DNA of 10,816 nt, from assembly GCA_042217545.1 (NCBI GenBank), contig JBDGSM010000030.1, positions 1 to 10,816 on the forward strand, given 5' to 3'. Source of the DNA: Candidatus Nanohalobium sp. GTDB lineage: Archaea > Nanohalarchaeota > Nanosalinia > Nanosalinales > Nanosalinaceae. The stretch's first letter is position 1, and every line of letters starts with the position of its first letter. A program made the position numbers and the translations under genes. Positions 6,397 to 10,592 of this stretch are shown one piece after another. The notes under the pieces were generated by a model. That model did not search any database. It was given only the letters and a program-made list of their open reading frames with translations, and was not told where the DNA came from.

Positions 6397-6906
6397 TTAC
6401 TTCACCTCTGCTCCGAGCTCGTTTTCGACGAACTCCTTTGCCTCTTCATCGGAGACCTTGTGATCTTTTCCGATCTTTGAAGGCTTGTGGTCCCTCTTCT
6501 TGACCCTGTAGCCAGGTCTTTCAAGGACGACTGTGACTTCGAAACCTTTCATGCCGATGTCTGCGTCGTAGTCAACACCGGGAACATCGATGTATTCGGA
6601 GATTCCGAAGGAAAAGTTTCCGTTGCTATCGAATGCGTCAGCGCTGATCTGGTTGTCTGCCGCGGGCAGGACTTTTTCCAGAAGGTCTCTGGCTTTTTCG
6701 CCTCTGAGGGTTACTGAAGCTCCTACGTTGAGGCCTTCTCTTAGTCCGAAGCTTTTTGCTTCTTCTTTGGACTGTACTCTGATAGGTTCCTGGCCTGTAA
6801 GTTTCTCTACCAGTTTGAAGGCCTTTTCTACGTCGTCTCCTACCTGTCCTGATGAGATGTTGACTGATACCTTGCTGATCTCGATCTGTTTCATTTCCTG
6901 GCTCAT
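6397..6906 (-). CDS. rpl5: 50S ribosomal protein uL5
   Basis: LTGQEP, FGLREG, VTLRG, FDSNGNFSFGISEYID, YDADIG and RPGYRV motifs. Confidence 0.98.
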   Translation of the reverse strand: MSQEMKQIEISKVSVNISSGQVGDDVEKAFKLVEKLTGQEPIRVQSKEEAKSFGLREGLNVGASVTLRGEKARDLLEKVLPAADNQISADAFDSNGNFSFGISEYIDVPGVDYDADIGMKGFEVTVVLERPGYRVKKRDHKPSKIGKDHKVSDEEAKEFVENELGAEVK

Positions 6907-6908
6907 TC

Positions 6909-6954
6909 GAAAACACCTCTGGTGTTTCCTGGATCACGAAAATCTTCGATTTTC
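6909..6954. repeat. Intergenic double-hairpin element (rps4e-rpl5 spacer)
   Basis: AAACACC-TCT-GGTGTTT (6911-6927, contains the rpl5 SD GAGGTG on the minus strand) and GAAAATC-TTC-GATTTTC (6938-6954, overlaps the rps4e stop). Confidence 0.85.
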
Positions 6955-7615
6955 ATTGTTCGTCACCTAGTTCGATGTCTTTTACTGCTACAAGGTTTTC
7001 GAGCTGTGTTTCGAACTCGTATTCGCTTTCGACGTCTCCTGTGTCCTGGTCGAGGTTTCTTCTGTGGACTTCTTTGAGTTCTGCGACTTCTCCTGCGTGC
7101 TGTCCGGAGATTACAAGGACCTGTGCTCCTTCCTCTCTCTTGACTTCTTCTGCGTCGCCGTTGAGTAGAAGGCTGCTTCCTGTTTCGAAGCTTTCCTCTG
7201 TCCTGTAGTTGTCTCCGTTGTGAAGGTGGTAGACGAACTCTTCTCCTTCTGTTGCTTTCTCTTCGATCCTTGCGATCGTTTTTTCGGAGTCGTCTATTTC
7301 GACGAATCTGAGGTCGTCTCCTTCGATTATTACTCTGTAGGCCTCGTCTACTTCTTCGAGTGTTACTACGTCGAGTACGCCGATTCCTTCCTTGACGTCC
7401 CTGACTCTTTCGCCGTTTCTGAGTAGCTGGCCGTTTCTGATTATCTGTTTTGCTTCTTTTTCGCTTTCCGCGTATCCGGTTACGTCTCTCAGGAAGAGAA
7501 CTGCCGGGATAGCTGTTTCGCTGCTCCTGCTGCCTTTGATGCCTGAGACATAGCTGTAATGCTTTCTCTGGATCGGGTAGTGCTTTGGAGCAGAAAGTCT
7601 TTTCTGATGTGTCAT
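6953..7615 (-). CDS. rps4e: 30S ribosomal protein eS4
   Basis: HQKRLSAP, LFLRD..GYA, GIGVLDVV, LHNGDN and ISGQHAG motifs; lies between rpl24 and rpl5. Confidence 0.96.
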   Translation of the reverse strand: MTHQKRLSAPKHYPIQRKHYSYVSGIKGSRSSETAIPAVLFLRDVTGYAESEKEAKQIIRNGQLLRNGERVRDVKEGIGVLDVVTLEEVDEAYRVIIEGDDLRFVEIDDSEKTIARIEEKATEGEEFVYHLHNGDNYRTEESFETGSSLLLNGDAEEVKREEGAQVLVISGQHAGEVAELKEVHRRNLDQDTGDVESEYEFETQLENLVAVKDIELGDEQ

Positions 7616-8353
7616 CTAGTTGTCACCTTTCTCTTCTTCGTCTTCGGTTTTCTCGTCCGATTCGTCTTCTTCAGTTTCCTCTTCTTCTGATTCTTCAGAG
7701 TCGGATTCGTCTTCACTTTCTTCCTCTTCTTCAACTTCTTCGGAATCTGTTTCCTCTTCGGATCCTTCGAATTCTTCCTCGACTTCTTCTGTCTCTTCTT
7801 CAAGCTCTTCCATTTCTTCTTCCATCTCTTCAAGCTCTTCTTCGTCGATGTCCATGTCTTCCATGGACTGTCCTCCGCCCTGCATCTTCTGCATCATCTC
7901 GTTTGCTTCGTCTTCTTCTAGGGCTTCCTCGACTTCCTCGGAGTCGACCCGGATGTCGCTTGACTCGTCGATCTCGTATTTCTCTATCCTATCGTTTTTC
8001 TCAAGGTTCAAGGCCTGTGCCTGTAGGTTGGAAGGCCTGAAAGGTATTTCGCTTGTGGATCCATCCTGGCGTGTTACTTCGATGCCGTTGATGTAGACTT
8101 TTTCCTTCTGTCTGTCTATGTTTGAGACGATTCCTTCTGCGCCTTTCCTGTCTCCTCTCATTACTTTTACCCTATCTCCAAGGTTGAGGCTGATCGAACG
8201 TGCTCCGAGCTCTTCTCTTAGTGTCTCGGAAAGATTTACTGAGATAAGAGTATCTTTTACGTGCTGTGGAGCGTTTTCCCTGTATTTCCTCTGCTTCTGT
8301 GGGTTGGTGCTTGAGTTCCAGTCGTTGCTCCAGTTTTCAGTTGTATTTGACAT
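7616..8353 (-). CDS. rpl24: 50S ribosomal protein uL24 with ~120-aa acidic C-terminal extension
   Basis: SSTNPQKQRKY..NAP.H, KOW motif GDRVKVMRGDRKG and PFRPSNL, followed by an E/D/S-rich tail. Confidence 0.96.
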   Translation of the reverse strand: MSNTTENWSNDWNSSTNPQKQRKYRENAPQHVKDTLISVNLSETLREELGARSISLNLGDRVKVMRGDRKGAEGIVSNIDRQKEKVYINGIEVTRQDGSTSEIPFRPSNLQAQALNLEKNDRIEKYEIDESSDIRVDSEEVEEALEEDEANEMMQKMQGGGQSMEDMDIDEEELEEMEEEMEELEEETEEVEEEFEGSEEETDSEEVEEEEESEDESDSEESEEEETEEDESDEKTEDEEEKGDN

Positions 8354-8358
8354 TAGTT

Positions 8359-8452
8359 GAAAACACCTGCATGTTTTCGGCTATTCGAAACCCGTGGAGT
8401 TTCTCCTACCAAGAAAACTCCGTTTTCGCTATTCCGAAAATCTGCGATTTTC
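8359..8452. repeat. Intergenic multi-hairpin element (rpl14-rpl24 spacer)
   Basis: GAAAACA-CCTGCA-TGTTTTC (8359-8378, contains the rpl24 SD), imperfect GGAGTTTCT...AGAAAACTCC (8396-8421) and GAAAATC-TGC-GATTTTC (8436-8452). Confidence 0.85.
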
Positions 8453-8456
8453 ATCT

Positions 8457-8858
8457 TTAGACCACCTGTGATGCGATTTTTCCGATTGGGCTGAAGCGCT
8501 GGACTACTTCCTTTGCGATAGGCCCACGGGTTACTGATCCTTTTGGTAGAAGGTTGTCTTCTTCGACGAGGACTGCTGCGTTGTCCTCGAACTTTACTCT
8601 GAGGCCTTCAGGCCTCTGGTATTCTTTTGCCTGTCTTACGACAACTGCGTCGAAGACCTGGTGTTTGACTTCCTGGTCTCCCTTCAGTACTTTTACTTTG
8701 ACGATGTCTCCGACTCCTGCGGAGTTTCTCCTGCTTCTTCGTCCTTTCTGGATTCTTACTCCGATGATCTTCAGCTTCTTTGCTCCGGAATTGTCTGCGC
8801 ATGTAAGTTCTGCGCCGATGTCCAGGGTCCTTGTAATATTTGCTCCCAGTGGCTTCAT
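8457..8858 (-). CDS. rpl14: 50S ribosomal protein uL14
   Basis: CADNSGAK, AGVGD, AVVVRQ, VKFEDNAAVLV and GPIAKEV motifs. Confidence 0.99.
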   Translation of the reverse strand: MKPLGANITRTLDIGAELTCADNSGAKKLKIIGVRIQKGRRSRRNSAGVGDIVKVKVLKGDQEVKHQVFDAVVVRQAKEYQRPEGLRVKFEDNAAVLVEEDNLLPKGSVTRGPIAKEVVQRFSPIGKIASQVV

Positions 8859-8859
8859 C

Positions 8860-9198
8860 TTACTCTTCCTCCTCTTGTCCGTTGTTTCTGATCTGTACGA
8901 TTACAGCGGATTTTGTCTTGGAGATAGGTCTTGACTCGACTATGCCTACTTTGTCGCCTTCTTCGACTTCAAGGCATTCAGGTACGTGCGCCGTGATCTT
9001 TGTGTTCCTCCTCTCCTTTCTCTCGTATTTAGGGACGCTTTCTGCTGTTTCCCATCTTACTGTTGCGGATTTCTGCATCTTGGTGGACTGCACTTCTCCC
9101 GTGAAAGTACTTCCTCTAACGGAGAGATCTCCGTGGAACGGGCAGTGCTTATCCTCGCATTCTTGTTCTGGTTCTTTTACGTCAAGTCCGATTCCCAC
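8860..9198 (-). CDS. rps17: 30S ribosomal protein uS17
   Basis: CEDKHCPFHGDLSVRG, KMQKSATV, PKYERKE and RPISKTKS motifs. Likely start is the GTG at 9198, preceded by SD AGGTGA, rather than the TTG at 9216. Confidence 0.97.
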   Translation of the reverse strand: MGIGLDVKEPEQECEDKHCPFHGDLSVRGSTFTGEVQSTKMQKSATVRWETAESVPKYERKERRNTKITAHVPECLEVEEGDKVGIVESRPISKTKSAVIVQIRNNGQEEEE

Positions 9199-9224
9199 TG
9201 ATTGTTCACCTTTCAAACTGTCGT

Positions 9225-9404
9225 AAACCTGAAAGATCTGTGAACTTTTTAAACCGTCTTACTTCAGGCAAAAAGAGAGCAATACGCTATAAGCGATTTT
9301 CTCATGCTCCTCCTGAAGTATCGCCTCCGACCTGAAACCCGGACAACAGGTTTCAAGGCCTTCACCGACTTCAAGTGGTCGAAAGGCTCACGCCTTTCAG
9401 GCTT
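9225..9404. other. Palindrome-dense intergenic element (structured RNA leader or IS200/IS605-derived miniature element)
   Basis: Inverted repeats TACTTCAGG/CCTGAAGTA (9260-9320), TGAAACC/GGTTTCA (9333-9355), GCCTCCGACC/GGTCGAAAGGC (9323-9387) and GAAAGGC-TCAC-GCCTTTC (9381-9398), plus an outer 10/11 inverted repeat at 9225-9235 and 9394-9404. Confidence 0.55.
9246..9253 (-). promoter_or_regulatory. TATA box (TTTAAAAA) for the rps17-secY transcript
   Basis: Minus strand reads AAGACGGTTTAAAAAG about 47 nt upstream of the rps17 GTG. A promoter is plausible here because an opposite-strand gene interrupts the operon upstream. Confidence 0.6.
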
Positions 9405-9428
9405 GTAGTCATGAACGAGAAGCTAAAC

Positions 9429-9436
9429 TTTAAAAG
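9429..9436 (+). promoter_or_regulatory. TATA box (TTTAAAAG) upstream of the plus-strand gene
   Basis: GAAGCTAAAC-TTTAAAAG about 57 nt upstream of the ATG at 9494, which has SD-like AGGTGG before it. Confidence 0.5.
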
Positions 9437-9493
9437 GGTGGTTAAGTTCGGGAGGCTTTTTTTGAGTTTTGAGTGGGAAGGTGGTTTCCACTG

Positions 9494-9954
9494 ATGTTAG
9501 AGGGGACAGGCCTGGCGGTGCATGGTTATGGGAGGTATGTGGATGAGGAGGCTTTCAGGGATGCAGGTGTCGAGCTTTCGGGTGAGATGGCTGTTTATGG
9601 TGTAAAGGCCTCGAACTTCTCGGATGATTTGATTGGTGGTTTTTACGAGGATACTTTTTCAGATATTCCGGGAGGGAGGAACGGGCTGTGGGTTCCCGTT
9701 TTCTTGAGGATCTGGAGGGGCCTTTCTACGTTTTTGGTGGTCTTGTTAGCGAGTGTGTGCCTGGTGCGGTCTACTCCGTCCTGAGTTCGGGTGAGGAGGC
9801 CTATGTCGTAGAAGATGCTTCGTTTGAGAAGCTCGGTGAGGATGAGTTCTTGAGTTACAGTGAGATGAGGGGTTCTGATGAGGATTATTCTGACGTGTTT
9901 CAGGATCTGTACATGCTTGGTGTTGATACTGTGAAGCTGGAAGATATCTTCTAG
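9494..9954 (+). pseudogene. Frameshifted gene, divergent isochorismatase/cysteine-hydrolase-like protein (~153 aa if rejoined)
   Basis: ORF 9494-9784 is acidic up to EDTFSDIPG. The overlapping frame (open 9628-9954) is acidic from REERAVGSRFLEDLEG and contains FGGLVSECVPGAVYSVLSSGEEAYVVEDAS, resembling the G..t..CV......G..v.vv.DA motif. The one-base shift falls near CCGGGAGGGAGG (9668-9679). Confidence 0.55.
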
Positions 9955-9959
9955 AAATT

Positions 9960-9986
9960 GTAAAGTAAGAGAAAAGTGGATATGTG
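9960..9986 (-). terminator. Putative pyrimidine-rich terminator downstream of SUI1
   Basis: The mRNA strand reads CACATATCCACTTTTCTCTTACTTTAC in the gap between convergent genes. Confidence 0.45.
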
Positions 9987-10009
9987 AGGGAATTTACGGA
10001 TTAAAGGCC

Positions 10010-10321
10010 CTAGGCTTCTACTTCGATGTTGCTGCGTTCGAAGCCTTCGTCGACCAGGATGTCTACGATTCTCCGGGTGTGGTCTCCCTGGAGTTCGATG
10101 TGGCCGTCTTTGGCGGTTCCGCCACACGCTAACTTGGATTTGAGTGTGGAGGCCAGGTCGTCGAGGTCTACTGAGTCTTCGAGGCCTTCGACGACGGTCA
10201 TCTCTTTGTTGTAGCTCCTTGTGTCGATTTTGACTGTGATTTTCTGATCCTCGCGTGCGATGCTGTCGCAGACGCAGAGGTCTTCAGGCATTCCGCATTT
10301 CGGACATGTAGCTTCTGGCAT
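10010..10321 (-). CDS. sui1: Translation initiation factor SUI1 / aIF1
   Basis: CPKCGMPEDLCVC zinc knuckle and LKSKLACGGTAK.G.IELQGDH motif. Confidence 0.97.
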   Translation of the reverse strand: MPEATCPKCGMPEDLCVCDSIAREDQKITVKIDTRSYNKEMTVVEGLEDSVDLDDLASTLKSKLACGGTAKDGHIELQGDHTRRIVDILVDEGFERSNIEVEA

Positions 10322-10323
10322 TC

Positions 10324-10375
10324 AAAGATCACCTTTGCTGTGATCTTTTGTGTGTCCAGAAATTCTTCGAATTTC
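10324..10375. repeat. Intergenic double-hairpin element (rpl29-SUI1 spacer)
   Basis: AAAGATCAC-CTTTGCT-GTGATCTTT (10324-10348, contains the SUI1 SD AGGTGATC) and GAAATTC-TTC-GAATTTC (10359-10375). Confidence 0.85.
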
Positions 10376-10388
10376 GTTCATTGATTAT

Positions 10389-10592
10389 CTAATCGGAGTT
10401 TTGTTCGTTGAGAACTGTTTTGATCCTTGCGATGGTTTTCTTCATCTCTTTGATCCGTCCTGGGTTGTCGGTAAATCCTCCGACTTCGATCTGTCCTCTT
10501 TCCTGGACCAGTTCCTTCTGAAGGTCGGTCATTCGTTCCTTGAGTTCGGATCTGTCCATGTTTCGGATCTCGTCGGCGGTTAGAATAGCCAC
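10389..10592 (-). CDS. rpl29: 50S ribosomal protein uL29
   Basis: MAILTADEIRNM...NPGRIKEMKKTIARIKTV; GTG start. Confidence 0.97.
   Translation of the reverse strand: MAILTADEIRNMDRSELKERMTDLQKELVQERGQIEVGGFTDNPGRIKEMKKTIARIKTVLNEQNSD

Follow-up and report, generated by a model that had tools for sequence, protein, structure and literature searches.

Long spacers in a nanohaloarchaeal ribosomal-protein operon as probable copies of a hairpin repeat that relays a short frame onto a new start codon

Mycobacterial interspersed repetitive units (MIRU) were reportedly described by Supply et al. in 1997. In the parts of the later literature drawn on here, they appear as intercistronic repeats of 40-100 bp, present in about 40-50 copies and with both empty and filled sites, and insertion at a start codon couples an internal ORF to the gene that follows, an arrangement presumed to render the insertion harmless (PMC12548453, PMC3184786). 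For Haloquadratum walsbyi, SMR-A elements and terminal-only PATEs are described as gene-less palindromic repeats of 50-110 bp that leave no target duplication, and SMR-A elements insert into the near-terminal palindromes of IS605 (PMC3119063). Our literature search returned no description of a hairpin-relay repeat family. Coupling by means of a leader ORF goes by the name of bicistronic design in synthetic constructs. Natural cases are the termination-reinitiation of Haloferax volcanii, with its short stop-start overlap (PMC10666635), and short leader ORFs that deliver ribosomes to a gene (PMC12548453); in both, according to the available parts of these reports, the SD lies within the upstream ORF and translation relieves the structure around the RBS. 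The r-leaders, as partly seen in PMC7247131, are structured RNAs that occlude an RBS in a ribosomal-protein operon.

Here, we analysed a window of 10,816 nt from Candidatus Nanohalobium sp. (contig JBDGSM010000030.1), in which a ribosomal-protein operon is read from the minus strand. A sequence-only reading of this DNA had claimed that most junctions of the cluster are short, which is indeed the case (-8 to +25 nt, with the exception of an 811-nt gap between SUI1 and uS17), and that three are longer, namely uL29-SUI1 (10322-10388, 67 nt), uL14-uL24 (8354-8456, 103 nt) and eS4-uL5 (6907-6952, 46 nt). Copy 1 lies between uL29 (10389-10592) and SUI1/aIF1 (10010-10321, Pfam PF01253), copy 2 between uL14 (8457-8858) and uL24, which has a long acidic tail (7616-8353), and copy 3 between eS4 (6953-7615) and uL5 (6397-6906), all on the minus strand; the names uL29, uL14, uL24, eS4 and uL5 are those we presume from translation and gene order. 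All three spacers contain the first hairpin and the SD hairpin that had been read from the letters. Hairpin 1, of 7 bp and with a GAA loop in copy 1 (GAAATTC-GAA-GAATTTC, 10375-10359), reads GAAAATC-GCA-GATTTTC in copy 2 (8452-8436) and GAAAATC-GAA-GATTTTC in copy 3 (6954-6938), where it starts within the eS4 stop codon. The SD hairpins at 10348-10324 (9 bp), 8378-8359 and 6927-6911 overlap AGGTG at 10334-10330, 8368-8364 and 6918-6914, respectively. The proposed two-hairpin layout describes the folding of two of the copies, which form two local hairpins, but has to be amended for the 103-nt spacer: its so-called linker holds a third, middle hairpin at about 8419-8395, and the predicted minimum-energy fold is a single nested rod with paired ends, in which the 5' arm and the SD region form the outer stem. 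The folding z-scores of the three spacers are -3.5, -3.1 and -3.1. The first-hairpin pattern is not a product of chance, occurring 18 times in the genome and not once in any of 10 order-4 Markov simulations. ARAGORN found no tRNA within the window, and a search of 4227 Rfam families at E up to 5 found no related family, its 6 weak matches being unrelated and all outside the spacers.

Each of the three spacers forms a mini-ORF (19, 33 and 17 codons, all on the minus strand), which begins at the relatives' own gene start and stops on the new start. Relay mini-ORF 1 (10322-10381; MNEIRRISGHTKDHSKGDL) begins 7 nt past the uL29 stop, at the position of the SUI1 start in the same-genus genome G001, and its TGA abuts the SUI1 ATG. 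Relay mini-ORF 2 (8353-8454) begins 2 nt past the uL14 stop, runs through hairpin 1, the middle hairpin and the SD hairpin, and ends in a TAA that overlaps the uL24 ATG (TAATG), whereas relay mini-ORF 3 (6903-6956; MKIEDFRDPGNTRGVFE), which holds hairpin 1 and the SD hairpin, has ATGA overlaps with both the eS4 stop and the uL5 start. The copies of the source genome read hairpin 1 in any of the three frames; the idea of a conserved peptide was rejected on this ground, and the relay peptide is therefore likely irrelevant.

The same frame closure is found well beyond the window. In 33 of 38 copies from the operon set, with inserts of 33-113 nt, the relay frame ends within -8 to +5 of the downstream start, as opposed to 5 of 74 shifted frames, and in a profile-defined set it ends within -8 to +4 in 25 of 26 copies (shifted frames: 1 of 52). 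These sequence comparisons argue for the link to translational coupling that had been proposed for the spacers. The exits of the 38 copies include 11 overlaps of -4, 11 overlaps of -1 and 8 abutting codons. When the launch ATG is in frame with the gene, the stop stands directly before the start in 8/8 copies, compared with 3/29 otherwise (Fisher p 4e-6, calculated over kin that are not independent). The position of the launch ATG follows that of the start in the nearest empty relative (rho 0.82), with 23 of 34 copies lying within 3 nt where permutation gives 10.5. A strict relay rule misses 6 of the 21 start copies found genome-wide in the source genome; in all six, post hoc inspection showed either a frame that closes or two mini-ORFs in a chain. 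A spliced, intron-like insert had been considered as well, as tRNA introns hold similar hairpins, but frame closure makes splicing unnecessary.

Occlusion of the SD, as claimed by the sequence-only reading, is likewise predicted across copies. SD hairpins are found at 35 of 77 junctions of 30-160 nt and at 3 of 631 compact junctions, and an SD core of at least 5 nt is present at 37/38 cassette junctions versus 387/631 compact ones. The predicted cost of opening the RBS has a median of 10.8 kcal/mol at the 38 cassette junctions and of 5.0 kcal/mol at 250 of the 631 compact junctions, a comparison that is partly circular, as 35 of the 38 were picked because of their SD hairpin. The arms of hairpin 2 pair with each other over 7.1 nt (4.9 nt when shuffled) in 24 copies for which pairing had not been a criterion of selection. 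The stems covary, with 34 A-U and 9 U-A at the variable pair and none broken.

The cassette, which had been described from three junctions, is not confined to these. With an nhmmer profile built from 15 copies of the source genome, which misses degenerate copies such as those at uL22-uS3 in this genome and in G001, we obtained 42 matches of 10 bits or more in the source genome. Of these, 21 are at gene starts, all in sense and none in antisense orientation, and the remainder are elsewhere. About 17 places with these hairpins lie away from gene starts, in part within or next to tRNA genes, and similar hairpins are contained in tRNA introns. The start copies precede ribosomal-protein genes in 11 of 21 cases and other genes, including AtpA, AtpB, SUI1 and Spt4, in 10. 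At the level of the phylum, the exact first hairpin is found in 49 of 70 genomes (reversed control 0/70). Across 39 genomes, 20 of 23 operon junctions carry the cassette somewhere, never in more than three genomes per junction (19-39 genomes scored each, one junction of the source genome that reads N being left out), and at least 34 gains or losses are required on the tree. Even within the genus, G002 is empty at uL14-uL24 and eS4-uL5 and G001 at uL29-SUI1, so the spacers are not conserved in close relatives. Such a lack of conservation, together with random orientation at arbitrary sites, had been named as what would overturn the regulatory reading in favour of a selfish repeat; the unconserved spacers and the non-start sites go most of the way towards this, but the orientation at starts is not random. 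One junction each is shared across genera, uL24 by the source genome and G007 and SUI1 by the source genome and G006; this retention and the share of ribosomal-protein genes among the start copies are consistent with a degree of functional selection. Two copies from different genomes and different junctions can be as alike (top score 0.82) as orthologous copies (median 0.52). The stems are AT-rich and the mean column identity among copies is 66%. Because the copies have diverged and no identical pair was seen at unrelated sites, a very recent jump is not shown.

The copies, their patchy occurrence, the orthologous sites without them, the geometry of old and new start, the closing frames and the covarying stems are observed. 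From these we propose, with a probability of roughly 70%, that each of the three spacers is a copy of a hairpin repeat of 45-110 nt, present at many gene starts of this lineage and likely gene-less and mobile, which would be tolerated in essential operons because each copy sits behind the old start and carries a short frame onto the new one. A copy would insert just 3' of a gene's AUG, bringing its own SD and a stop/start overlap. A ribosome arriving from the upstream gene might then reinitiate at the old AUG, read 16-35 codons while melting the SD hairpin, terminate and reinitiate on the new AUG, by termination-reinitiation and/or RNA unfolding. An insert out of frame would break the coupling of the gene and be purged, and the SD hairpin would keep the gene dependent on upstream translation. 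As reported for H. volcanii in the available part of the study, a spacing of about 20 nt nearly abolishes reinitiation (PMC10666635); an insert of 46-103 nt without a relay would therefore be expected to uncouple the gene.

Compared by description, the cassette resembles MIRU in insert length and copy number, in its position at start codons, the corresponding sites of relatives being empty, and in the geometry of the internal ORF, including the -4 overlap. MIRU have tetranucleotide direct repeats at both ends, and most cassettes share 2-5 nt there, the start codon included (5 nt or more in 12/37 copies, against a null of 22%). MIRU are, however, mycobacterial, GC-rich inverted repeats with a -4 overlap, whereas the archaeal cassette consists of AT-rich 7-9-bp hairpins with NNA triloops, uses three exit geometries and all three frames, buries its own SD in a hairpin and is also found in or beside tRNA genes. 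With the SMR-A elements, likewise compared by description, it has in common the hypersaline archaeal hosts, the absence of genes and the lack of target duplication, as 33 of 37 cassettes share less than 7 nt at their ends. SMR-A elements of one type are more than 95% identical and have prominent terminal inverted repeats, in contrast to the diverged cassettes with their two local hairpins, the rod-folding 103-nt copy excepted. The cassettes also target start codons, a term that is absent from the main text of PMC3119063. Unlike in the natural and synthetic coupling systems, the leader ORF is here carried by a dispersed repeat, which is present at some junctions inside operons and absent from others as it comes and goes.

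Only 4 of 37 copies have direct repeats of at least 7 nt (null 2.7%), which are 7-15 nt long and span the start region, and a long target-site duplication was rejected as the rule on this ground; the element ends vary between copies, and some other junction inserts duplicate the 3' end of a gene. A cassette of this length has no room for an enzyme gene. In the source genome (92% complete), neither a Y1 transposase nor a reverse transcriptase nor Cas1 was found, and Y1 is present in only 4 of 70 genomes of the phylum; the one integrase-family match and the one tnpB of the source genome have no cassette beside them. In contrast to what a PATE or IS605 derivative would show, none of 9 tnpA, tnpB and integrase loci matches the cassette profile with an E below 0.05. 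A 57-nt look-alike lies inside the IS605 left-end palindrome in L194 and is missing from the near-identical end in L196, a single case among 4 tnpA left ends examined, with a weak profile score (8.5 bits, E 0.08). As a tentative guess, the mover might be a hairpin-recognising HUH/Y1 transposase that is occasionally supplied in trans; host repair or template switching would be about as likely a mover. A bolder version, which we consider rather doubtful, is a selfish element that homes to start codons: an unrecognised copying enzyme would target the AUG in coupled operons and bury the only SD of an essential gene in the element's own hairpin, leaving expression to the relay ORF. If true, operon relays, tRNA-intron hairpins and IS-end passengers across the Nanohaloarchaeota would be one family, and nature would have tested the geometry of archaeal termination-reinitiation dozens of times independently.

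It seems unlikely that the cassette is instead a selected, portable regulatory module, perhaps a domesticated repeat, acting as a natural bicistronic valve that keeps the downstream RBS silent when the gene before it is not translated, or as a regulator site tuning highly expressed genes. Nearly all start copies have an occluded SD, and this, the covarying stems, the copies kept across genera and the genes served, from ribosomal-protein genes to AtpA, AtpB, SUI1 and Spt4, point in this direction. However, most genomes lack the cassette at every junction, those of the same genus included, no consistent gene set emerges and the same hairpins stand in tRNA introns and at other non-start sites; covariation, moreover, need not mean selection at the RNA level, since palindromes can self-correct by mutation. 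It is improbable, too, that no autonomous or parasitic element is involved and that microhomology-driven template switching or gene conversion at shared SD-AUG sites copies and removes cassettes, with hairpins arising and becoming perfect by quasi-palindrome mutation: most genomes lack a transposase, the ends vary, four copies have direct repeats and some inserts duplicate gene 3' ends, but nearly all copies share too little between their two ends, and the stereotyped first hairpin recurs phylum-wide, also at sites without an SD-AUG (tRNA genes, an IS end). The conserved cis-regulatory module or autoregulation site proposed by the sequence-only reading, in the form of an S8-, L24- or S4e-binding leader or an operon-specific mRNA processing site, fits the S10-spc position, the SD occlusion and the precedent of the E. 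coli S8 site, a structured RNA occluding the RBS near the L5 cistron of the spc operon, but is very improbable for spacers that, unlike r-leaders, have no fixed position, no Rfam match and no restriction to ribosomal-protein genes.

If the spacers are copies of a tolerated hairpin repeat, genomes of about 1 Mb that are regarded as streamlined harbour an apparently mobile repeat in the very operons they can least do without, gained or lost at least 34 times in one operon across 39 genomes. The near-invariant frame closure would then be comparative evidence for the importance of stop-start coupling in DPANN archaea, which lack genetics, and would list the geometries accepted in nature (-4, -1, abutting). 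The cassette would be a convergence with MIRU in a second domain of life, with SD occlusion added. For annotation, such spacers would be neither promoters nor r-leaders, and their peptides likely by-products. Small cassettes are directly testable in the existing Haloferax reinitiation reporter.

A genome scan outside the lineage gave at least 118 loci. Among those listed, 2 of about 89 from outside the nanohaloarchaea and look-alike archaea show relay geometry under our rule (L090, L158), and of 29 of nanohaloarchaeal type, some of which may duplicate genomes already in our set, 22 close within -8 to +5, 4 at -9 or -10 and 3 are without a scored downstream start. Viral contigs gave 6 pattern matches, none with relay geometry. 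Four DNA runs were compared through their contigs at 80% likeness: the two candidate source runs match the eS4-uL5 spacer without differences, and joints lacking the spacers, most likely derived from other species, were not used.

The window, C24:1-10816 of a 1.03-Mb genome (G000) that is 92% complete, carries the S10-spc ribosomal-protein cluster on its minus strand. The identity of SUI1 is supported by Pfam; the other ribosomal genes bear the names we take from their translations and gene order. The uL29-SUI1 (67 nt), uL14-uL24 (103 nt) and eS4-uL5 (46 nt) spacers hold, at the same positions, what the sequence-only reading had reported, namely a first hairpin with a 7-bp GAAAWUC-type stem and a second hairpin that buries the AGGTG ahead of the downstream AUG. 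The spacers fold more stably than shuffled sequences (z about -3.1 to -3.5). Across the genome, 18 matches to the first-hairpin pattern are found, versus 0 in each of ten Markov simulations. This cassette is a real feature. Its supposed two-hairpin layout needs amendment for the 103-nt spacer, where a third hairpin is present and the predicted fold is one nested rod that would still cover the SD. Overlooked until now was that the spacers are open frames of 19, 33 and 17 codons, launched 7, 2 and -4 nt from the upstream stop, respectively, and all ending so that they abut or overlap the downstream AUG.

A map of 755 junctions of the operon in 39 genomes (including 38 relatives with a uL5 match) shows that, among junctions of 30-160 nt, 35/77 have an SD-covering stem of at least six Watson-Crick pairs, versus 3/631 compact junctions and 0/47 long ones. 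Such a stem, or a match to a sequence profile, picked out 38 junctions; in 33 of these, the frame opened by the earliest start codon past the upstream stop closes within -8 to +5 of the downstream start, versus 5/74 for the two shifted frames. Of the five misses, one has a launch codon picked by the rule that differs from that in the profile-only analysis, one stops at +10, overlapping a second in-frame ATG of uL5, one stops at -13, one lacks a launch codon, and one is a probable false member of the set. When junctions are chosen by profile only, 25/26 close within -8 to +4 and the last at +5 (shifted frames 1/52). As a counterpoint, 23 of 51 expanded junctions under the profile threshold close likewise; many of these look like degenerate copies. 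A stop just before the start is found in 8/8 cases with the launch codon in frame with the gene and in 3/29 otherwise. The cassette 3' end thus differs from frame to frame, which would be expected from purging of wrong frames or from subtypes with matched ends.

Judged from sequence comparison, the cassette is an insertion immediately after the old start codon. The launch codon position corresponds to the real gene start in the nearest empty relative (rho 0.82), and the two lie at most 3 nt apart in 23/34 cases (10.5 in permutations). Conservation of the spacers in close relatives, at issue in the sequence-only reading, was not borne out within the genus: at uL29-SUI1, SUI1 of G001 starts right after the same 7-nt gap, and at eS4-uL5, G002 has a plain ATGA overlap; at the latter junction the cassette is present in G001, where a 3-nt indel leaves the frame intact. 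In a phylogeny of 12 concatenated operon proteins, cassettes occur at 20 of 23 junctions, in at most three genomes per junction, which amounts to at least 34 changes; histories with loss only require 4-12 losses per junction. Some copies are inherited (G000/G001 at uL5 and G000/G007 at uL24); other copies at the same junction are unrelated, and near-matching copies sit at different junctions of different genomes. Target duplications of at least 7 nt are exceptional (4/37 copies).

In H. volcanii, reinitiation is reported to require an overlap or a very short gap, and about 20 nt almost abolishes it (PMC10666635), so an insert of 46-103 nt should uncouple the downstream gene. The cassette SD is also predicted not to open readily on its own, with median RBS-opening costs of 10.8 kcal/mol at cassette junctions versus 5.0 at compact ones in a partly circular comparison. 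We propose that the old start would retain coupling to the upstream gene, and that a ribosome on this relay frame would melt the hairpins and then terminate on the new start. From its geometry, the relay frame would solve both uncoupling and SD occlusion.

The profile gives 42 matches of at least 10 bits in G000. Of these, 21 lie at gene starts, every one sense; two further matches duplicate a start already counted, and 19 were classed as lying elsewhere, of which two proved to be relays also. The genes that follow the start copies are 11 ribosomal-protein genes (seven identified by Pfam; uL4, uL23, uL24 and uL5 by gene order) and those for SUI1, AtpA, AtpB, an RNase PH exosome subunit, SerRS, topoisomerase VI A, Spt4, a NifU-like protein, a MazG-like protein and prephenate dehydrogenase. 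A fixed rule detects the relay in 15/21; post hoc inspection of the other six showed either closure of the frame or two mini-ORFs in a chain. Two successive relay mini-ORFs precede atpA (C52:6826-6962) and the NifU-like gene (C39:10340-10493). Among 18 non-start matches inspected, four are inside tRNA genes or no more than about 30 nt from one, and some are intergenic in antisense orientation. The stems covary in 43 aligned copies, as the sequence-only reading had suggested checking, and also in 24 copies not picked for the second stem; possible causes are selection on the structure of the RNA or DNA, and self-correction of palindromes. The exact first hairpin is present in 49 of 70 genomes of the phylum (reversed control 0), and named nanohaloarchaeal records carry the same cassette ahead of the same kinds of genes; together with the acidic proteins, this points to a place for G000 in the Nanohaloarchaeota. 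An all-prokaryote scan (at least 118 loci) found the first hairpin also in other archaea and bacteria, and among the matches listed the relay geometry is almost confined to nanohaloarchaeal-type records. In nine loci from Nanoarchaeota, Methanosarcinales, Methanobacteriota and Thermoplasmatales (L096, L108, L122, L145, L149, L171, L175, L071, L119), the first hairpin stands in hairpin arrays off start codons, suggesting a wider archaeal repeat family.

The proposed ribosomal-protein autoregulation site is unlikely; the cassette fails the r-leader tests of conserved position and of restriction to ribosomal-protein genes. Closer parallels are mobile repeats. Mycobacterial MIRU are described as start-codon insertions whose internal ORF is coupled at -4, which is believed to render them harmless (PMC12548453, PMC3184786); the cassette would work alike, and falls partly outside the MIRU definition. 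It also resembles, again short of the full definition, the SMR-A repeats of Haloquadratum, described as gene-less repeats that lack target duplications, enter IS605 palindromes and are without a known mover (PMC3119063). The 92%-complete G000 sequence yielded no Y1 transposase, reverse transcriptase or Cas1, and Y1 was found in 4/70 genomes of the phylum. One Y1-bearing locus, L194, has a similar-looking 57-nt double hairpin within its IS605 left-end palindrome, from which the near-identical left end of L196 is free; it scores weakly against the cassette profile. This IS200/IS605 element (tnpA-tnpB, genome G055) has added hairpin units inside both end palindromes (L194:1335-1430 and about 2905-2995). 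No nanohaloarchaeal description of the cassette was found in the openly accessible literature searched, PMC10266531 included. The window contributes a phylogenetic map of the operon resolved by junction, a test of the ancestral start and the association between the frame and the 3' end.

Several long tRNA introns in G000 (contigs C17, C29, C37 and C58) have a common 13-nt motif on the 5' side, with hairpin arrays after it, and short hairpin inserts at C14:60-200, C17:20431-20557 and near C42:1054 are bordered by a duplicated tRNA 3' end. The uL6-eL32 insert of L060 (genome G030) opens with the same 13-nt motif and duplicates the uL6 3' end; G034 has a similar duplication. At eL32-eL19, families f3 and f4 (e.g. 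L056, L058, L062, L067) have a 170-210-nt spacer, absent from the window's family, with what looks like a small CxxC zinc-finger ORF.

Within the SUI1-uS17 gap, positions 9260-9409 (minus strand) are strongly structured and non-coding (z -4.1), with TTTAAA upstream at about 9432 and blastn-similar sequence in the same place in four relatives (G001, G002, G017, G018); Rfam gave no match for this candidate small RNA. Two overlapping ORFs of 103 and 88 aa at 9473-9954 (plus strand) have no Pfam match and, because contigs of two possible source runs have a 1-base insertion at 9682, may be a single gene split by a frameshift or by an assembly error. Contigs of the same two runs also have a 27-nt insertion at 7783 in uL24 (7616-8353, minus strand), whose extremely acidic C-terminal tail is about 125 residues long. 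The start of uS17 (8860-9216, minus strand) is more likely GTG at 9198 than the listed TTG at 9216; AGGTG lies at 9211-9207, ahead of this GTG, and a second TATA-like box at about 9253. After secY, an EMC3/TMCO1-like (DUF106) membrane protein is encoded at 212-943 on the minus strand (PF01956).
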